Positions 8,798-48,632 are shown, counted from the first letter of the stretch. The stretch is DNA of 48,739 bases from Candidatus Pacearchaeota archaeon (GCA_016186365.1 JACPLT010000015.1:1-48739); one strand, 5' to 3'. Made by a program: numbers and translations. The notes: a model not told the origin generated them from the sequence alone.

Positions 8798-9034
8798 CTA
8801 TCTTGCCAAATATCTTTCAGCATATTTTCTTATTGATTCAACCCCATGAAATCTATCTCCATTAGGAGCTTCCAATCTCGGAAGTAAAATAAATCCGTCA
8901 AGCTGAGAACCGCCAGGCATTTCTCTTACCTGCCCCCCACCCTCTTCAATCATTTTAAGATAGGGCATAATTGCTTTATTCTCCCAATCACGTTCTGGAG
9001 GGGCAGCACATGCAATATAAAAATTTCCTTTCAT
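8798..9034 (-). CDS. hypothetical protein (GC-rich island)
   Basis: 78-aa ORF with Gly/Pro/Arg-richer composition than its neighbours. Co-oriented with, and 47 nt downstream of, ORF 9082-10179. Confidence 0.5.
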   Translation of the reverse strand: MKGNFYIACAAPPERDWENKAIMPYLKMIEEGGGQVREMPGGSQLDGFILLPRLEAPNGDRFHGVESIRKYAERYLAR

Positions 9035-9081
9035 ATAGACTATAAAAATAACTTATTTAAATAATTTTCTAAAACTAAAAT

Positions 9082-10179
9082 CTATCTCACTTTCCAGTCA
9101 TAGTCTTTTAATTTTCCATCTCTAACAGGATCCCAATATGCAATTTCATTATGTCCAAAAACACCTATTGCCCTTGCCAGCAGCATCGATACCTCGCATA
9201 ATCTTAATCTTCTCAATCCCCCCCTTCCTGATTTTGAGGAGATAGTAGGGTCAAAAATAAGCACATTGTTTTCCAATTTTTTATAAATATCCACTCCCCT
9301 CTGTGAAAATAAAGCAAAAGGATTCATCTCCATAGGAGTAAGATTGTGCTCTTTCCAGCACTCTCCTGCAATTTTAATATAACTGGCAATATCCTGAGGA
9401 TAAAAAGTTATAACCTCGCTTCTCTCATTTTCACTATCCCAGGTATACCTAATATTATACACTGCATGAGGAGTTTGAGAATTTCCAACAGGCTCTCCCT
9501 GATCATCAATTACTGCAGAATTTTTCAATGTAAGGACACTAGCCAGATTTTCTTTCCCCCTTGTTGTAGGAACATGGAGTAATTTTAGTTTGTATCTCGG
9601 TTTTTTTCTTGTTCTTGAAGGAACCTCGCAGACAACACTCGCCCCCTCACGCCTTACTCTTTCAGCATCATCATAATTTTCTACGACTATCTCAATTCCT
9701 CTTCTGTCTGTTCCAGGAATTTTCATTGTTTCAGAATAAGCAAATAATCTCACTCCTTCTGGACAGAATACAAATGGGACAACTCTCTTTAAATTGTCTC
9801 CACCCCACCTTGGCTGAAAAGAATATCCCACAACCCTTATTTCTTCTTCTTTCATCCCCTTAAGTTTAGAAAAATCTCGTTCTCTCATTGCAAGAGGTAT
9901 CTCGCTTGAATCATAACATCCTTGTCTTGACTCTGGATGGCTTAGTCTAATCAACTCCCCATATTTAAGAGATTTTCTTGCAGCTTCCTCGCTCGTTCCA
10001 GAATTAATAAAAAACTTCCCAGGAATAAGCTGAAATCTTAATTCAACATAATCATTGCAGGAATCACTATCTTCTATCTTTTTCAAAAGATTTCTGCCAT
10101 TATAAGCCAGGACAGCCTTTAGTTTTCTTATCTGCCCTGATGTTCTTCTCTTAAAAAATGATTTTTTTTCTTCTGTCAT
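9082..10179 (-). CDS. hypothetical protein (GC-rich island), no recognisable family
   Basis: 365-aa ORF with non-repetitive, globular-looking composition. Local GC is far above the flanks (29 G+C in line 9601-9660 versus 10 in line 10321-10380). Confidence 0.6.
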   Translation of the reverse strand: MTEEKKSFFKRRTSGQIRKLKAVLAYNGRNLLKKIEDSDSCNDYVELRFQLIPGKFFINSGTSEEAARKSLKYGELIRLSHPESRQGCYDSSEIPLAMRERDFSKLKGMKEEEIRVVGYSFQPRWGGDNLKRVVPFVFCPEGVRLFAYSETMKIPGTDRRGIEIVVENYDDAERVRREGASVVCEVPSRTRKKPRYKLKLLHVPTTRGKENLASVLTLKNSAVIDDQGEPVGNSQTPHAVYNIRYTWDSENERSEVITFYPQDIASYIKIAGECWKEHNLTPMEMNPFALFSQRGVDIYKKLENNVLIFDPTISSKSGRGGLRRLRLCEVSMLLARAIGVFGHNEIAYWDPVRDGKLKDYDWKVR

Positions 10180-10274
10180 ATTAATCTTAGTTATGTAATA
10201 TTAATAAAATAGTGTGGTGAGGTTTATCACCCCAAATAGAAAGAGTTATAAATCTGGGGAAATTAAGATATATA

Positions 10275-10781
10275 ATGTTTAAAAAATATTCATTCAAAAA
10301 ATATAACAAGAATTACCCTAAATTATTTAACATAGAAAGAAAAAGATTAATTAAAATATTGCCAAAAAACGCAAAAATAAAACATATTGGGAGTACTGCA
10401 GTTCCTAATCTTGGGGGAAAGGGAATAATTGACATAATCATTTCAGTTAATAAGAATAAAATAAATTCTATTAAAAATAAGCTTATAAAATTTGGCTGCG
10501 AATTTAAAGAAAAAGCAGGAGAAAAAGATAGGCTATTTTTTGAAAAAGATTACAAAAATAAAGAAAAAATAAGAAGGGTTCATATTCAACTAACTGAACA
10601 TAATAGCAAGATATGGAAAAATTCAATTAAATTTAGAGATTTATTAAGAAATAATGAATTATTAACAAAAAAATATTCGGAACTAAAGAGGAGAGCAGTT
10701 AAATTAAAAAAACAGGGAAAAGATTATAGGAAATTTAAAGAGAAATTTATCAGAGAGATATTAAAATATGAAATTATTTGA
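10275..10781 (+). CDS. GrpB/UPF0157-family nucleotidyltransferase-fold protein
   Basis: IKHIGSTAVPNLGGKGIIDIII matches the conserved GrpB core (H-x-GST-[AS]-VPG...K-x-IID). Confidence 0.75.
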   Translation: MFKKYSFKKYNKNYPKLFNIERKRLIKILPKNAKIKHIGSTAVPNLGGKGIIDIIISVNKNKINSIKNKLIKFGCEFKEKAGEKDRLFFEKDYKNKEKIRRVHIQLTEHNSKIWKNSIKFRDLLRNNELLTKKYSELKRRAVKLKKQGKDYRKFKEKFIREILKYEII

Positions 10782-11967
10782 TAAAGATGAATTAAAGCTT
10801 TTATGGCCGTTTTATCTAGACACGCTCTTAAGCCCCATGTTATTTTTTGCTCCGGTATTTTATATTATTTATTTTTCTCAAATAGGGTTTAGCTTTACTC
10901 AAATAGGAATTTTATTAGCCATTCCTTCGTTAATAGCACTAATATTTGAAATTCCGACAGGAGCAATTGCAGATTTGTATGGAAGAAAATTTTCTGTCTT
11001 GCTGGGATTTTTATTATCAGGAATTGCCCTTTTTTTGCTTTATTTTTTCTCTGATTTTTATTCTGTAGCATTGATATTTGCTTTTATCGGATTCGCATCA
11101 ACACTGCCTTCAGGAAGCAAAGAAGCATGGGTCATGGATTTGCTAAAAAATGAAAATAAAAAATTAAGGCATGATTTTTTCTCAAAATTCCAGATATTTA
11201 ACAGCTTTGCCCTGATTATTTCTGGAATTTTTGGGGCATTTTTAGTAAAAAAGTTCGGATTAACTATAATCTGGCCAGTTGCAGGCTTGTCTTATTTAGT
11301 TGCTTTTTCAGTATTACTATTTGGTAAAGAAGATTATGAAAAAACAAAACTAAAGATTTCAGAATCCTTTAAGAATTTAAAGAATCAAACAAAAAAATCC
11401 CTTGTTTTCAGTTATAAGCATCCAGTATTATTTTACTTCTTCCTAGCAACCATGATTTTGATTTTTGCCTCTGCTCTTCATTCAGACCTTGGCTGGATTC
11501 CTTTTTTGACAGAATTGGGATTAAAAGAATATTATTTGGGTTATCTTTGGAGTGCACTAGCCCTTACTACTATGATTGCTCCTTTTTTCTCAATGAAATT
11601 TATGAAAAAAGGAAAAGAAAGAAATTTTATAGTCCTATGCCTAATCCTATCAATAATTATAACTCTCTTAATATTATATGCGTATAATTTAGCTCTGGCT
11701 TTTGCAGTATTGCTTATCTCTACATTTTTCTTTTATTCAAGGATACCTGCAGAAAGAACTTATTTTCATAAATTTATCCCAAGCAAAATGAGGGCAACAA
11801 TAGGGAGCATAGAAGGGATGTTAATTTCAATAGCAGGGATTTTTGCCTCTATTTTAGCAGGATTTTTAGTAGATAAAATAGGTCCAAAATATACTATTTT
11901 TATTTCCAGTATATTCATGATTCCAGCAATAATTATTTATCTAAAAATTCAGGAAAAGAAAAAATGA
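10768..11967 (+). CDS. MFS-type transporter
   Basis: 399 aa with about 12 hydrophobic helices. The loop motif GAIADLYGRKF between TM2 and TM3 is the MFS signature. Confidence 0.8.
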   Translation: MKLFDKDELKLLWPFYLDTLLSPMLFFAPVFYIIYFSQIGFSFTQIGILLAIPSLIALIFEIPTGAIADLYGRKFSVLLGFLLSGIALFLLYFFSDFYSVALIFAFIGFASTLPSGSKEAWVMDLLKNENKKLRHDFFSKFQIFNSFALIISGIFGAFLVKKFGLTIIWPVAGLSYLVAFSVLLFGKEDYEKTKLKISESFKNLKNQTKKSLVFSYKHPVLFYFFLATMILIFASALHSDLGWIPFLTELGLKEYYLGYLWSALALTTMIAPFFSMKFMKKGKERNFIVLCLILSIIITLLILYAYNLALAFAVLLISTFFFYSRIPAERTYFHKFIPSKMRATIGSIEGMLISIAGIFASILAGFLVDKIGPKYTIFISSIFMIPAIIIYLKIQEKKK

Positions 11968-12677
11968 TGAACACAAACAAACTAGAACAAGCAGGATTGA
12001 CAAAAAATGAAGCTTTAGTTTACCAAGCTCTCCTAAAATCAGGCCCTAATCTGGCAGGCAGAATTTCGAGATTAACCGGCTTGCATAGAAGAACGATTTA
12101 TGATATTACAGATATGCTTATTAAAAAAGGATTAATAGGATATATAATAAAGAATAATCAAAGATTATTCAAAGCCAGCTCTCCGAACAAATTTCTTGAA
12201 ATTATGAAAGAAAAAGAAAACTCGATTTCAGAAATAATGCCAGAGATGCTATCTTTATATAGTTCTGTAAAAGAAAAAGAAGAAACTAATTTTTACAAAG
12301 GAAAAGAAGGGTTAAAAACAGTTTTCGAAGACCAGATAGAAGAAGGAAAAGAAATTTTAATATTAGGAGCCTCTCCTCTAGCTTATGAAATTCTCAAGTT
12401 TTATTTCAAATGGTTTGATGAAAGAAGAAAAGCGAAAAAGATAAGGACAAGAATAATTTTTAATAAAACAGAAAAGAAACTCCATATTCCATTGTCAGAA
12501 ATTCGCTACTTGCCAAAAAAATACTCCTCTCCATTGTCAATAAACATCTATGGAAGCAAGACAGCAATAATCTTCTGGAGAAAAGAAAATCCCATAGCTA
12601 TAGTGATAAAAGACAGGGACATGGCAGAAGCTTACAAGAAGCATTTTGAGTTGATTTGGAACTATGCAAAAAAGTGA
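11964..12677 (+). CDS. TrmB-family transcriptional regulator
   Basis: N-terminal wHTH LEQAGLTKNEALVYQALLKSGPNLAGRISRLTGLHRRTIYDITDMLIKKGLI is typical of TrmB. ATGA overlap with the upstream MFS gene. Confidence 0.8.
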   Translation: MMNTNKLEQAGLTKNEALVYQALLKSGPNLAGRISRLTGLHRRTIYDITDMLIKKGLIGYIIKNNQRLFKASSPNKFLEIMKEKENSISEIMPEMLSLYSSVKEKEETNFYKGKEGLKTVFEDQIEEGKEILILGASPLAYEILKFYFKWFDERRKAKKIRTRIIFNKTEKKLHIPLSEIRYLPKKYSSPLSINIYGSKTAIIFWRKENPIAIVIKDRDMAEAYKKHFELIWNYAKK

Positions 12678-12713
12678 ATAAATCTTTAAAAATGGAGGTT
12701 AGATAGTTAAATT

Positions 12714-13817
12714 ATGAGTCCAGCATCATTGCACCTAAATGTGATAACAATTAAAGAAGAAGACTTAAAAGAAGCAGCCAGATATATCCAGTTAACCAGA
12801 AGGCTAGCATATTTTATTCACGAACAAGGAATATCTAAAAAAATAGGGGTTCCAGAAAGAAGTTATAGATGCCTGCAAGCTCTTGCTAAAACCCCGGATT
12901 CCACTGGTTTAGACTATGTCTCTCCAACTATCAAATTAAATGGCGGAGATATATCAAATTTTTTATTTAGTATTATAACAGATTCGCAAGCAGGATTTTT
13001 AGAAACACTCATAAATTTCAATGAATCAACTTTAGGGAGTCCAGATTTAAGATGGGGATTAGAAACCCTAGCAAAATATTTAGAAATTGCCAAAAGAACC
13101 GAAGGAGTTATCAGAAGAAAGTTTGGACCAGAAAATAAAAGGATGCGAACAATATTAGAAGTATTAGAAAAAACAAACTCTCAAAGAAAGATGGATGAAA
13201 CAAGAAAGTGTTTTCAAGCCACTATTTCTATGTGGAAATATTTAACAAAAGTAATGGGCATAAAATTAAAAAGAACAGGCGCAATTGCAAGATATTGCCC
13301 GCCTCTTGCACAAGTTTATCAAAAGTTCGGACCTGCCCTATGCTCCAGTTTAGGTTGTACTAAAGTCTTTCAAAATGAAAATGATTCTGAAATAGTGGGA
13401 GAAATACTAAAAGAGCTAGTCACATTTTCAGAGGAAGATGCCTACATATACACCGCAGCCCTAACTTCATTTACTCCAATTCAAGAAAAAAAGAAATGTG
13501 TTGAAATTGTAATTCCAAAAGAAAAACCAGTAGAAAAACCTTCTGTAAAAGAAGCTGAATCTTTCTCCGATTATAACCCTCATGCTCTAATTAAAAATAA
13601 AGTACATTCCAGATTATCAGGAGACAGCAGATTAAGAATAGAGTATTTCTTTGAAGAAGTTTTAAATAATCCTAAATATAGTCAAGGACTAAGAAATAAT
13701 CTTGCAGGGAAAATAAAAAATAATAACTGGTACAACCCTAATATGACTGATACAGAAGTAAGAAATTACTTTGATGATTTAGAATTGGAAGCAGTAAGAG
13801 CAACAAGAAAAGAGTAA
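12714..13817 (+). CDS. hypothetical protein
   Basis: 367-aa ORF. No motif recognised. Confidence 0.55.
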   Translation: MSPASLHLNVITIKEEDLKEAARYIQLTRRLAYFIHEQGISKKIGVPERSYRCLQALAKTPDSTGLDYVSPTIKLNGGDISNFLFSIITDSQAGFLETLINFNESTLGSPDLRWGLETLAKYLEIAKRTEGVIRRKFGPENKRMRTILEVLEKTNSQRKMDETRKCFQATISMWKYLTKVMGIKLKRTGAIARYCPPLAQVYQKFGPALCSSLGCTKVFQNENDSEIVGEILKELVTFSEEDAYIYTAALTSFTPIQEKKKCVEIVIPKEKPVEKPSVKEAESFSDYNPHALIKNKVHSRLSGDSRLRIEYFFEEVLNNPKYSQGLRNNLAGKIKNNNWYNPNMTDTEVRNYFDDLELEAVRATRKE

Positions 13818-13823
13818 ACCAGA

Positions 13824-14429
13824 TTAATGTTTAGATCTCTTTCTAGACTGATAATATTTAATATCTCCTTTTTCATCATATTTCACATATCCCGATTGTT
13901 GATACTGGCTTTTTGTTACCTTCCTGGATGTAACTTTCTTATTCCAATTATCAACATACCTTCTGTCTGAATCATGATAAAGAACATCATCAATATACAA
14001 AGTGTTTGTTCGAGCATCATAATGCCATGCAACTCTTTCATTGGGCGCTCCCAAAGGAGAGATAGAAAAATCTCCAATATTTTCTTTTACAGGATTTATA
14101 GGATTTGCAGCAATTTTTCTAATAAAACCTTTATATTTGCTAAGATGATTCTTTATGTAGCCATCTTTTCTTGCTCTTTCCAAAGCTGGCCTAGATATCA
14201 TTATTCTAACTTTCTCTTTTTTAACACGAACAGGTGACTGAGCTATTTCTTCAAGGGTTTGAGAAACAAGCAATAAAACTATCCCCAAGGCTATAAGAGA
14301 TAATCCAAAAAAATAAACTTCAGCTTTATTGATTCCTATAACCGCCGCAGTTATGCTTGAACTAGCAAGAGTTATTGCTATTCCTGCAACTAAGAACGCT
14401 ATACCCATCACCCTTTTCATGCAAATCAT
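13824..14429 (-). CDS. membrane-anchored protein with a RelE/ParE-like C-terminal region (tentative)
   Basis: The ORF track extends to a GTG at 14444. ATGs are at 14429 and 14420. There are two N-terminal TM helices, followed by ...GDFSISPLGAPNERVAWHYDARTNTLYIDDVLYH, which resembles the RelE/ParE beta-sheet core. Confidence 0.55.
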   Translation of the reverse strand: MICMKRVMGIAFLVAGIAITLASSSITAAVIGINKAEVYFFGLSLIALGIVLLLVSQTLEEIAQSPVRVKKEKVRIMISRPALERARKDGYIKNHLSKYKGFIRKIAANPINPVKENIGDFSISPLGAPNERVAWHYDARTNTLYIDDVLYHDSDRRYVDNWNKKVTSRKVTKSQYQQSGYVKYDEKGDIKYYQSRKRSKH

Positions 14430-14469
14430 AACTTTTTTATACACTCTTACTATAAAAATATATGGATAA

Positions 14470-14594
14470 GCGCTATTAGTTTATCGGTAGAATGAAGCCT
14501 TCCCAATGTAAGGAACCAAGGTTCCTTAACACTCAACCTCCTAAAAATAAAAAGGAAAAAGGCTTAGAGCCGGGTTCAATTCCCGGATGGCGCA
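14470..14594 (+). tRNA. tRNA-Gly(CCC) with a 54-nt intron at 37/38
   Basis: Acceptor GCGCTAT/ATGGCGC (one G-U). D arm GTTT-ATCGGTA-GAAT. Anticodon stem AAGCC/GGCTT with loop TTCCCAA (CCC at 14502-14504). T arm CCGGG-TTCAATT-CCCGG, discriminator A, no encoded CCA. Confidence 0.85.
14506..14559 (+). other. tRNA-Gly intron (canonical position)
   Basis: TTCC (32-35) pairs with GGAA (14554-14557), flanked by 3-nt bulges, giving bulge-helix-bulge geometry. Contains hairpin GGAACCAAGGTTCC. Homologous to the tRNA-Asn intron. Confidence 0.75.
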
Positions 14595-14839
14595 TATCGG
14601 AATTGCAAATGCCGGGAATTGCAGTGATAAACCTACTCTGAATTTTAATCATAAGAAGAGAGCACGAGAGAAACTTTGGTTCTCTCGTGTTCAATTCCAG
14701 GCATGGGCATTCACGCGTAAAAGCGACTATGCATCGGAGGGGCATAGCAAAGATATAAGTCCACTCACACTTGGGGCATGGAATTGTGGAGAGTTCAAAT
14801 CCCGGAAAAGGGGTTGCTGTCAATAAATTTTTATCTATA
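14595..14839. other. GC-rich non-coding block with strong hairpin and T-loop-like motifs; unassigned RNA or tRNA debris
   Basis: 29 G+C in line 14701-14760. A 10-bp perfect hairpin pairs cacgagagaa (14663-14672) with ttctctcgtg (14680-14689). GTTCAATTCC occurs at 14690-14698 and GTTCAAATCC at 14793-14802, neither with a partner T-stem. Three GGAATTG copies are at 14599, 14615 and 14780. Confidence 0.35.
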
Positions 14840-15313
14840 TTAATTAATTTTAGTTTTTACAATTTCCTTAAAATTAGAACCGCTGGCTCTTATTTCTACT
14901 GGCTGATTTTGCTGACAGAACAAACTAAACTCAACACCAGGATTTATTTCTACACCCGTAATTATCCATTTTTTAGTGTGTATTAAATCATTATATTCTC
15001 CAGTAAAATCTTTTTTAGTTTGATTTAGTAATTTTAATTCAACTTCATCAATTCCAATCGCGCAATTTGTAACATACAATATTCTAAACTGCAATTCTTC
15101 AGTTGCCATATTTCCAACATTCTTAATTCTAATTCTATAATTGCCATCCAAATTATCTTCAAAACTTATTTTAATAGAAGGGCGTAGGGAAATAGCTAAG
15201 ATAAAAAGTTGAGAAATTATTAATACAATTAAACCATACACTATATATTTGACTACATTTTCTGGCTTTTTTACTTCTATCATAACTTTACTTAACCAAT
15301 TGTTTATACCCAT
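14840..15313 (-). CDS. hypothetical membrane-anchored protein
   Basis: 157 aa with one N-terminal TM helix (IVYGLIVLIISQLFILAISL) followed by a beta-rich soluble part. Confidence 0.5.
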   Translation of the reverse strand: MGINNWLSKVMIEVKKPENVVKYIVYGLIVLIISQLFILAISLRPSIKISFEDNLDGNYRIRIKNVGNMATEELQFRILYVTNCAIGIDEVELKLLNQTKKDFTGEYNDLIHTKKWIITGVEINPGVEFSLFCQQNQPVEIRASGSNFKEIVKTKIN

Positions 15314-15735: not shown

Positions 15736-15802
15736 GGGGGCATAGCAAGCAAGTCCATGCCCATACGGAGTATTTCCCAAAAAATGGCAAAATGCCACCC
15801 CC
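15736..15802. other. GC-rich double-hairpin element between convergent genes (candidate small RNA or terminator)
   Basis: gggcat (15738-15743) pairs with atgccc (15757-15762). tggca-aaa-tgcca spans 15785-15797. GGGGG/CCCCC flank the element. It shares GGGGCATAGCAA...AAGTCCA with 14739-14763. Confidence 0.3.
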
Positions 15803-15814
15803 GTAAGCCGCATT

Positions 15815-16093
15815 TCACTCTCCCTCTTTCTGCTCATTAACAGAACTAACTATCTCTGTAATATTATCCATAACATGCTGGATTGCCTCTTTTTCTCCTG
15901 CTCTCGGATTCTTCTCTAAATATTTGAGCAGAAAATCTGCCGCAGCTACTGCGCATATCTTTTCCTGCTTGCCCGCATCCAGAGATTTCATCAAGTATTT
16001 TATAATTTCCTCGCTTTCAGCACTAGGATTTTCTTTTTTATAAGAAAAAACCGCATTTGCAGAAGTTATCATCACCAATTTTTCATTTTCCAT
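15815..16093 (-). CDS. hypothetical protein
   Basis: 92-aa helical-looking ORF. No motif recognised. Confidence 0.5.
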   Translation of the reverse strand: MENEKLVMITSANAVFSYKKENPSAESEEIIKYLMKSLDAGKQEKICAVAAADFLLKYLEKNPRAGEKEAIQHVMDNITEIVSSVNEQKEGE

Positions 16094-16210
16094 TATAACT
16101 ATTATTTTTGATGCTTTTTAAGTATTTTTATGCTGGAATATATTTATCAAAAAAACCCAAAATAACAAAACTCGCTATATATTTTTAAACAAGAGAATAT
16201 TAAAAATCTA

Positions 16211-48047: not shown

Positions 48048-48632
48048 TTAAGCCTTCTTTTCATAAATCTTTTTCACAATCTCTTTTCTTAATTTTAGTG
48101 TATTTGCCCATCTCGCATAAGCTTGCCAGCCTTGAAAAGATTCAAGAAATTTTTCTTTATTTATATTTCCTTCTTTATAATTTTTAATTTTTAAAATAAT
48201 TTTATTTATATTTCGCTTTCTAAGCAGTCTAAAATAATAAAAATTTCTAAAGCCTACAAAATCTACTCCTCCTGAAAGAGAAATTATTTTTGATTTTTGA
48301 GAGTGCAGTTCTATTTTTAAGTTATCTCTTAAAAAATCATTAATCTTATTCATCCATAATTCTAATTGTTCTTTAGAATTATGCAAAATAATAAAATCAT
48401 CTACATATCTTATGTAATATTTTGCTTTTAATTTATGTTTGACAAAATAATCCAACTCATTCAAATAAATATTTGCAAAAAATTGAGAAGTTAAATTTCC
48501 TAGAGGCATTCCAATACCCACTCTAACTTTTCCATTTTCTAATACTTTTTTAATCAGCCAGATAACTTTTTTGTCTTTTATTTTTTTTCTTATAATTTTG
48601 GTGAACCTCTCCGCAGCAAGCTGCGGAGCATC
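48048..48632 (-). pseudogene. DGR-type reverse transcriptase, 5'-truncated (motifs 1-3 missing)
   Basis: Motif 4 GMPLGNLTSQFFANIYL carries the DGR-specific [LIV]GxxxSQ. Motif 5 is YIRYVDDFII, with a thumb-like tail. The frame stays open upstream only to a TAA at 48633-48635, which is the stop of a tnpA-like ORF. No ATG start; the ORF track uses GTG at 48521. Confidence 0.7.

Follow-up and report, generated by a model that had tools for sequence, protein, structure and literature searches.

A GC-rich block downstream of an archaeal tRNA-Gly(CCC) gene: probable insertion scars of small hairpin-bearing elements

The tRNA-Gly(CCC) locus

The window, i.e., the whole stretch of 48,739 nucleotides analysed here, is contig C11 of a Candidatus Pacearchaeota genome recovered from groundwater metagenomes, which comprises 0.97 Mb in 43 contigs, has a GC content of 33%, and is 82% complete. 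Related records carry the names Candidatus Pacearchaeota, Woesearchaeota or Nanoarchaeota. Positions 14470–14594 on the plus strand contain a tRNA-Gly(CCC) gene with an intron of about 54–57 nt at position 37/38, which matches Rfam RF00005 over its full length (45.2 bits) and is 90% identical to intron-bearing homologues in the metagenome contigs L065/L066. ARAGORN reported no tRNA in the window and so missed this gene, the T-loop of which, TTCAATT, is unusual. The arrangement between 14566 and 15400 is confirmed by contigs of four DNA runs from one groundwater study, and in these runs no strain-level presence/absence polymorphism was seen at the locus.

The block that follows the gene (14595–14839) has a GC content of 42.4%, as against 32.3% for the whole window, with 29 G+C among the 60 positions 14701–14760; in 100-nt windows the GC fraction reaches 0.49 within the block and is about 0.30 in its flanks. 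The initial annotation had drawn attention to this contrast, to a perfect 10-bp hairpin, to a recurrent heptamer, and to two further T-loop motifs, all of which were found again. The hairpin (14663–14689) is formed by the strands CACGAGAGAA (14663–14672) and TTCTCTCGTG (14680–14689) around the 7-nt loop ACTTTGG. The heptamer GGAATTG is present on the plus strand at 14599, 14615 and 14780, and its complement is found exactly at 14577 and 14692, and as the A variant CAAATCC at 14796. Counting either strand, five exact matches lie within 210 nt versus 23 in the whole 48.7 kb, where 10.3 would be expected and 23 is reached in 0 of 100 shuffles. The T-loop motifs GTTCAATTCC (14689–14698) and GTTCAAATCC (14793–14802) both fall outside any Rfam tRNA. 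A repeat search assigns the three T-loop segments to one in-register repeat family, with 14571–14595 as the reference, 14686–14710 at 76% and 14790–14814 at 64%. At the gathering threshold as well as at E ≤ 10, Rfam recovers only tRNA-Gly(CCC).

The reference copy of the repeat, X1 (14571–14595), consists of the tRNA's own T-loop, the 3' strand of the T-stem, the 3' strand of the acceptor and the discriminator. It is followed by a segment of roughly 95 nt, module 1 (14596–14689), whose left arm (14596–14629) contains two tandem inverted T-arm copies, CGGAATTGCA and CCGGGAATTGCA, with GGAATTG at 14599 and 14615. These heptamers read as they do because the arm is the reverse complement of the TTCAATT T-loop. 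The pre-hairpin segment (14636–14662), delimited by alignments and by the covariance model R1 of the module core, includes the TATA-like sequence TTTTAATC followed by AAGAAGAGAG, where sister copies have GTTTAAAC ... AGGAAAG/AGGAGAG (alignments A1/A2); R1 matches here with 94 bits. Module 1 ends with the conserved terminal hairpin (14663–14689; 10-bp stem, 7-nt loop) and, based on these sequence features, is a recognisable member of the family described below.

At the foot of the module 1 hairpin begins X2 (14686–14710), a displaced and decayed duplicate of the tRNA 3' end that has drifted by about four changes in 22 nt. The repeat search also indicated that 14604–14621 is complementary to 14692–14709 (83% over 18 nt), the right partner of this inverted pair being located in the duplicated target and the left partner, the arm, behind variable filler. 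Compared without gaps, X2 is closer to the arm (15/18) than to X1 (13/18), a match that could reflect selection on an arm:duplicate stem and hence be a hint of function. X2 is followed by TTCACG (14710–14715), which module-free relatives identify as the ancestral 3' flank of tRNA-Gly(CCC).

The next 74 nt, a GC-rich middle block between the flank of X2 and the third repeat copy (14716–14789), include a hairpin CTATGC/GCATAG at 14727–14747, the sequence GGGGCATAGCAA at 14739–14750, and GGAATTG at 14780–14786 followed by GGAGAG (to 14793); the terminal hairpin is absent. An exact 12-mer of this block is repeated at 15737–15748, and 14774–14786 has an inverted match to 15750–15762; apart from this pair of matches the block has no relative. 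No homologue of the middle block was found in 40 relatives. Its assignment to the protein-context subfamily described below was rejected, as the resemblance is limited to short motifs and an nhmmer profile of the protein-context elements gave no match. Only its position between two decaying duplicates suggests that the middle block is presumably the wreck of an older insertion. The third repeat copy, X3 (14790–14814), is the oldest duplicate of the tRNA 3' end; it has kept the T-loop and T-stem (12/13) and has lost the acceptor part. Neither X2 nor X3 matches any other tRNA of the genome. An AT-rich tail with a T-run (14815–14839) then extends to the stop codon of the convergent ORF 14840–15313 on the minus strand.

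Several assignments of single motifs were tried and discarded. A C/D-box sRNA is not compatible with GTGATAA and CTGA only 7 nt apart, which is too close, nor with an antisense element on the wrong side of the boxes. As a tRNA-Cys anticodon arm, CGGAATTGCAAATGCCG would overlap the supposed T-stem, and the loop in the copy on contig C17 would have 6 or 8 nt. For a bulge-helix-bulge intron made up of the module and X1, the MFE folds contain no such motif, and oligo-T follows X1 in sister copies.

Other copies in the genome and empty sites in relatives

BLAST searches of 40 relatives and of the genome itself identified a second module copy (88–89% identity) at tRNA-Gly(GCC) on contig C17. This tRNA gene has an intron of about 330 nt and is followed by a homologous left arm, 89% identical to that of module 1, by an 89-nt palindromic nested insert, and by the same hairpin, after which come GTTTAAGTT and an exact 13-nt copy of the tRNA-Gly(GCC) end, CCGGGCAGCGCAT. 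The reverse complement of the arm common to the window and C17 reads CAATTCCCGGCATTT(T)GCA. Since the two tRNAs differ in the acceptor, at least this arm must have travelled with the element. The copies in the window are relics: the duplicates have decayed, and the hairpin is present in only two copies in the genome.

The same plan, i.e., X1, a short inverted target copy (X'), an interior and X2, is found at tRNA-Tyr on contig C24, with an exact 22-nt repeat and GGGGATTTGAAC as X'. At tRNA-Ser(GGA) on contig C27 an exact repeat of 46 nt extends 20 nt beyond the gene, and the interior is made up of nested palindromes, the first part of which is the reverse complement of the stretch of tRNA that borders the repeat on its left. 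Both interiors are unrelated to the modelled core, and the phenomenon is thus wider than the one core family modelled here. ARAGORN calls the C27 duplication a tRNA-Ser with a 161-nt intron.

Empty sites were taken from related metagenome contigs; a synteny-based comparison with the 40 nearest genomes gave none. Among related metagenome sequences, tRNA-Gly(CCC) without the module is present at five distinct loci (six records, of which L065 and L066 are the same in sequence). The nearest of them, L065/L066, shares the intron, has 90% identity over 14448–14598, and is syntenic with the window from metG to the homologue of 15818–16117. In the module-free relatives the tRNA end is directly followed by TTTCACG (L065/L066) or TTCACT (L064). 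In the window TTCACG adjoins X2, not X1. Therefore, X2 together with TTCACG represents the displaced original end of the locus, and 14596–14689 is inserted DNA.

Distribution and anatomy of the element family

The R1 model has matches in 28 of the 151 genomes of the family, G000 (the window's genome) included, with up to five copies per genome. In an order-level sample searched at E ≤ 1e-4, a stricter threshold than that of the family-wide search, matches were obtained in 0 of 45 genomes of other families and in 3 of 105 of the own family. A pattern scan of 185,579 species, each represented by one genome, gave archaeal matches only in MAGs named Pacearchaeota, Woesearchaeota or Nanoarchaeota and in one doubtful Bathyarchaeota, and a number of bacterial matches near that estimated for chance. 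In these searches, only Nanoarchaeota-type DPANN archaea (MAGs named Pacearchaeota, Woesearchaeota) yielded the element family.

The plan of the family was derived from 60-odd copies. It starts with the gene end X1, 0–30 nt of unique filler and X', continues with GAAC..AAT..GTTTAAAC..(A)TTCAAAC..AGGAAAG/AGGAGAG and the hairpin, and ends with X2, a direct copy of X1; the insert amounts to about 65–110 nt with a conserved core. Flank statistics were obtained from 46 distinct copies, about 30 of which are flanked by direct repeats of 13–33 nt with 0–1 mismatch, and X2 starts between -2 and +8 nt from the last hairpin pair.

The elements occupy three contexts. Hosts at the 3' end are tRNAs for Gln, Arg, Gly, Lys, Ser/Leu and others; here X begins in the T-loop, at position 54 or 57, and extends to the discriminator and a further 0–5 bases of the trailer, and X' resembles GGATTCGAAC, the reverse complement of the T-loop sequence GTTCGAATCC. 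In another genus, for instance, tRNA-Gln(TTG) precedes about 45 nt, then the hairpin, in which a single pair has undergone a compensatory change, and then a duplicate of the 3' end of this tRNA. A large subfamily is the mirror image, located at the 5' end of opposite-strand tRNAs, with X the antisense of tRNA nucleotides 1–16 (GCTGAGCTAC plus 7 nt) and X' composed of GTAGC and as many as six bases from the acceptor of that same tRNA (L071, L108, L131). The third subfamily is associated with protein-gene ends and has a different stem-loop as its left arm; in the protein-end copies L041 and L052, repeats of 33–35 nt cover the last codons and the stop. The copy at locus L059 abuts the ATG of SRP54. 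Other copies are inserted in frame and stop-free inside a PCMT gene and a GatB/E gene, the Pfam domains of which are split in two by 29–44 extra residues. For some hairpin copies that immediately precede a complete tRNA or the SRP54 ATG, no duplication is detectable.

Family-wide, seven of the ten hairpin pairs exhibit compensatory changes and 88.9% of cells are paired, a level that is reached in 0 of 500 shuffles and exceeds all slid controls. The hairpin is under structural selection, which would suit the unknown ncRNA or protein-binding array raised in the initial annotation and is equally expected for a transposition signal. The match of X' to its cognate target has a mean length of 6.8 nt versus 5.5 nt for non-cognate targets (p about 0.001). 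X' is therefore in the main a generic anti-T-loop arm that is extended to some degree in a target-specific manner.

Signs of mobility

The 5'-end subfamily has a 65-nt core for which identities of 95% and 98% were obtained at two different tRNAs of a single MAG. Between MAGs that bear the names of different lineages, where neither flanks nor fillers are related, the core reaches 97–98%. Core identities of 95–98% across MAGs named Pacearchaeota, Woesearchaeota and Nanoarchaeia suggest that the elements were active recently and may have spread horizontally. At L047, L061, L025, L071 and L104 a single tRNA is followed by stacked or tandem modules, each with a further copy of the tRNA end behind it, and at the sequence level this is exactly the pattern of the window.

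Analysis of the ORFs within about 1.5 kb of 45 copies, and of the window locus, identified no integrase or transposase beside them, and an all-against-all comparison of the ORFs around the 45 copies revealed no shared mobility gene and no recurrent ORF. A search for long versions, in which the left arm has no hairpin within 70 nt, yielded nothing informative.

Interpretation of the block

Taken together, these results make it probable that 14595–14839 arose from two or more old insertions that piled up at the 3' boundary of tRNA-Gly(CCC) and were made by small non-coding, non-autonomous, hairpin-bearing elements. The insertions put a duplicate of the last ~20 nt of the tRNA (T-loop to discriminator) beyond the insert, and the T-loop motifs have no 5' partner because such a duplicate sits beyond each insert. 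The tRNA gene is the target and is left intact by each event. On this interpretation the block consists of insertion scars and is not a gene. Among the options raised in the initial annotation, that of stacked tRNA 3' fragments left by integration is borne out by the in-register decaying copies, by the family insert with its target duplications, and by the relatives with empty sites. Its premise, according to which a GC-rich stretch in an AT-rich archaeal genome points to a structural RNA gene, fails at this block, and here a contrast in GC is not by itself the mark of an RNA gene. The insertions explain the orphan T-loops and GC-rich hairpins behind tRNA genes of these tiny genomes, which should serve as a warning for annotators.

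The module might instead be a small transcription unit used by the host, with a promoter of its own that would drive an RNA made up of the hairpin and the tRNA tail, or a promoter/leader cassette for downstream tRNAs; either would act on the expression, processing or protection of the tRNA, the duplicates being functional tails. The TATA-like box (GTTTAAAC/TTTAAGG), the T-run after X2 and the covariation of the hairpin would all be compatible with such a unit. In addition, complete Ser/Leu-type tRNAs of several genera, and likewise the SRP54 start codon, are immediately preceded by GGAGAG and the hairpin; since some such copies have no detectable duplication, a promoter or leader role is possible. 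The window module folds well on the plus strand with the arm paired to X2 (z = -5.7), but the fold of the minus strand is nearly equal in strength (z = -4.6), as is expected for a DNA palindrome, and the spacing between the TATA-like box and the hairpin varies from 20 to 29 nt. Moreover, the distribution is patchy, with matches in 28 of 151 genomes and at few tRNAs in each; close relatives have no module at the same tRNA; and old tails decay (76% and 64% in the window). We therefore consider a host-used unit unlikely.

Direct repeats that span the T-loop to the tRNA 3' end could also be the attL/attR-like remains of a tyrosine-integrase virus or plasmid that recombined within the tRNA T-loop and was later almost wholly deleted. 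Williams is said to have described in 2002 just this segment as the block of identity that is usual for integrases of the T-loop type. Integration of a circle with a folded or palindromic att site would give the order X1, spacer, inverted copy, body and X2, and tRNA fragments resulting from the integration of a mobile element have been documented in Caldiarchaeum (PMC3293823). The insert, however, is always about 65–110 nt with a conserved core, which does not resemble the remnants of random deletion. Near-identical cores are present at different tRNAs of one genome, each with repeats of its own tRNA, a pattern that a fixed attP cannot produce. Copies also exist at tRNA 5' ends and at protein-gene ends, and the surroundings of the 45 copies and of the window locus are free of integrases, as described above. 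Att-site scars are in our opinion quite improbable.

A further view is that the block contains pieces of a real multi-intron, permuted or split tRNA whose 5' part is encoded elsewhere. Nanoarchaeota are the classic home of split tRNAs, Rfam recognises only 25 tRNAs in this 82%-complete genome, many of them with long introns, and the block has two 3' ends with a T-loop and an acceptor-like part. Yet RF00005 has no match in 14595–14839 even at E ≤ 10, a result that equally removes the support for the earlier option of a tRNA with non-canonical introns. The CATGGGC of X2 mismatches the tRNA 5' strand GCGCTAT at four of seven positions, X3 would require the acceptor CCCTTTT, and a genome-wide scan revealed no credible partner with a 5' acceptor and D-arm for X2; the genome being 82% complete, this negative result is not absolute. 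An oligo-T run separates the tRNA from the module in many sister copies, which speaks against an intron. Finally, the fragments are accounted for as decayed copies of the adjacent tRNA, and sister copies duplicate whichever gene end they adjoin, including antisense 5' ends and protein C-termini. A real tRNA in pieces is thus highly improbable. That the stretch is protein-coding is scarcely credible: the ORFs 14587–14826 (plus strand, 79 aa; named in the initial annotation) and 14533–14823 (minus strand, 96 aa) are both open, but neither has a Pfam match at E ≤ 1, both overlap the tRNA 3' end, the conserved parts change by hairpin-compensating substitutions and indels and not codon-wise, and the region is missing from relatives.

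Possible mechanism

If the block is a pile-up of insertions, as we propose, the junctions place constraints on how the element moves. The hairpin-side junction is precise, and the gene-side junction is ragged, with 0–30 nt of filler followed by the short inverted target copy. Neither DDE cut-and-paste nor conservative site-specific recombination fits this pattern well: a DDE transposase with a fixed stagger is unsuited because the duplications vary from 13 to 33 nt and the precision is one-sided, and a sequence-specific integrase because many tRNAs carry near-identical cores, each flanked by repeats of the tRNA concerned. The element might rather be copied in replicatively at tRNA genes, by a target-primed or template-switch process. 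Its tRNA-end-like tail and inverted arm would base-pair with a new tRNA gene at the conserved T-loop or D-arm, and target-primed synthesis or template switching would then produce the precise junction on the hairpin side, the ragged junction with filler on the gene side, and duplications of variable length.

In the copies at C17, L007, L019 and L078, a mutated, fossil T-loop piece (GTTTAAGTT, TTCGGATT) is located between the hairpin and a shorter exact duplicate, which is offset by 7–8. We infer from its sequence that this piece derives from a previous target. Together with the shared arm, such putative fossils point to pairing of the tail and arm with the T-loop or D-arm during copy-in. More specifically, the element may be a homology-guided, target-primed mobile element in which the hairpin, the tRNA-end-like tail and the inverted anti-T-loop/anti-D-arm segment would serve as guide or primer at the nucleic-acid level and would select the conserved T-loop or D-arm of whichever tRNA gene, the tail being re-templated at each target; this proposal is speculative, and we advance it only tentatively.

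The search for an autonomous partner or enzyme covered Cas1, TnpB, IS110, reverse transcriptase (RT) and shared ORFs, and identified none. Cas1 is present in 10 of the 151 genomes and in none of the 28 that bear modules, where chance alone would give about 1.9 overlaps. Five module-rich genomes contain neither TnpB nor IS110. RT is encoded in 57 of the 151 genomes of the family, i.e., in 12 of the 28 with modules versus 45 of the 123 others, so RT is not associated with the modules; the one RT that was inspected is DGR-type.

Comparison with known systems

In the literature searched, which included a 2026 Nanobdellota genome survey consulted by keyword, we found no description of such elements in DPANN archaea. 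The traits that characterise the family are the targeting of the outer ends of tRNA genes, on both sides, and the unusually long duplications.

Among prokaryotic mobile DNA, MITEs and small palindromic repeats such as Correia, ERIC and the Rickettsia RPE form the obvious comparison set. Like these, the element is shorter than 150 nt, non-coding and multi-copy (up to five copies per genome), and as in MITEs its inverted ends give a long hairpin, its target is duplicated, and nested and stacked copies occur. The occasional in-frame, stop-free insertion into an ORF, here PCMT and GatB/E, resembles that of RPE. In contrast to the short and fixed duplications of MITEs, those of the element are long and variable (13–33 nt), only one of its ends is precise, and its inverted repeat consists of the element's arm and the duplicated target, as in the arm:X2 pair of the window, and not of two element-borne TIRs. 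Nor do MITEs have its strong preference for the outer 15–20 nt of tRNA genes at either end, and no autonomous relative of the element was found.

Archaeal elements that integrate at tRNA genes offer a second comparison. In Aciduliprofundum boonei, a casposon at the 3' end of tRNA-Pro is associated with a 15 bp target duplication and has left the tRNA intact, and mini versions of casposons can integrate (PMC5137440). The unusually long target duplication and the intact tRNA are shared with that casposon (PMC5137440). However, the casposon TSD has a fixed length and overlaps the tRNA by only 5 bp, whereas the duplication of the element is variable. Casposons, moreover, are kilobases long, have true TIRs and encode Cas1 and PolB, and Cas1 is found in none of the 28 module-bearing genomes. 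In Caldiarchaeum, a 1.8 kb element that encodes a recombinase has left behind a tRNA-Thr fragment (PMC3293823). As with that element, the insertion adjoins a tRNA gene, an orphan tRNA fragment is left, and the gene stays functional (PMC3293823). Each insertion of the element leaves a tRNA fragment beside a TATA-like box and so bears on the fragmentation of archaeal tRNA genes, as in the model put forward for Caldiarchaeum (PMC3293823). Unlike the Caldiarchaeum element, the insert here measures 65–110 nt, is non-coding, and has near-identical cores at many tRNAs.

Variable TSDs are a feature of target-primed retroposons of the SINE/LINE type and of the eukaryotic retroelements that target tRNA genes. 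The precise 3' junction, the ragged 5' junction with filler and the duplications of variable length are shared with such retroposons, as are a tail homologous to the target and an internal promoter-like box, but the element has no A-tail and no association with RT. No retroposon-type element of the target-primed kind is known in archaea, so the likeness concerns the mechanism only.

The 3'-half genes of the split tRNAs of Nanoarchaeum equitans consist of a promoter-like box, a leader and a tRNA 3' piece. The same succession of promoter-like box, leader and tRNA 3' piece is seen here, in a nanoarchaeote-type genome. The piece, in contrast to those half genes, is only about 17–21 nt long, from the T-loop onward, and it decays; a complete tRNA is located upstream, and a complementary partner trailer is absent. 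Should the guided, target-primed mode of insertion nonetheless be correct, the orphan 5' and 3' tRNA pieces that it would leave in a promoter-proximal position could be raw material for the split tRNA genes of nanoarchaeotes.

Related arrangements at other tRNA genes of the genome

The plan of the tRNA-Gly(CCC) locus recurs with a different interior at the tRNA-Tyr gene of contig C24 in the same genome (C24:11142-11392 of G000, outside the window). After the tRNA comes GGGGATTTGAAC, which is the tRNA's T-loop in reverse complement, followed by ~120 nt of unrelated sequence and then by a 22-nt exact copy of the tRNA's 3' end. A search with R1, the covariance model of the hairpin-element core, gave no match to this interior. 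At tRNA-Ser(GGA) (C27:27421-27654, minus strand), an exact 46-nt direct repeat spans from the T-arm to 20 nt beyond the gene, and the two copies are ~130 nt apart with nested palindromes in between. ARAGORN wrongly reads this locus as a tRNA with a 161-nt intron.

The tRNA-Gly(GCC) gene (C17:3975-4348, minus strand) has an intron of ~330 nt that includes a tandem duplication of ~65 nt, and the module downstream of it carries a nested palindromic insert of 89 nt (TAGATAAATGACT...AGTCATTTATCTA). Five further T-loop plus acceptor 3' ends in G000 (C27:1970, C29:291, C4:37958, C6:48037, and C24:9003) fall outside the 25 Rfam tRNA calls. These are probably additional intron-rich tRNAs that standard tools either missed or found by half.

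Other features of the window

A GC-rich double-hairpin element at 15736-15802 has two sequences in common with 14739-14786, namely GGGGCATAGCAA, a 12-mer identical in both, and a 13-mer in inverted orientation; the genome contains no further copy. Five related records (L063, L065-L068), which represent four distinct loci, have metG immediately next to tRNA-Gly(CCC). In the window the two genes are ~5.7 kb apart, with extra genes at 8798-14444 that include a TrmB-like regulator (11964-12677) as well as some ORFs without Pfam matches. This segment looks like an island inserted 5' of the tRNA. A partial reverse-transcriptase (RVT_1) match is located at the end of the window (48246-48560, minus strand), and a full-length reverse transcriptase is encoded at C28:6685-7293. 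Such enzymes occur in 57 of the 151 genomes of the family; the one inspected, from genome G005, is of the DGR type.

The hairpin element at other genes

In several related loci (L030, L033, L055, L027, L040; L059), AAGGAGAG and the hairpin are positioned directly upstream of complete tRNAs, some of them of the Ser/Leu type, or abut the ATG of SRP54. No flanking repeat was detectable at these copies, and the unit may serve there as a promoter or leader.

The element is also associated with protein genes. In L041 (G148:C21) and L052 (G005:C74), it is found at the 3' end of the gene between direct repeats of 33-35 nt, which take in the stop codon together with the codons just before it; the gene upstream of the element is intact, and an orphan C-terminal mini-frame remains. 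In L031 (G105:C8) and L034 (G166:C13), the element is inside the PCMT and GatB/E genes, respectively, in frame and without stops, with a length equivalent to 29 aa (IATFFGGNEKSRRSGIRGESARETAGSLA) in the former and 44 aa in the latter. These copies may be translated, in the manner of the RPEs of Rickettsia, or may be removed. In both genes the element cuts the Pfam domain into two stretches.
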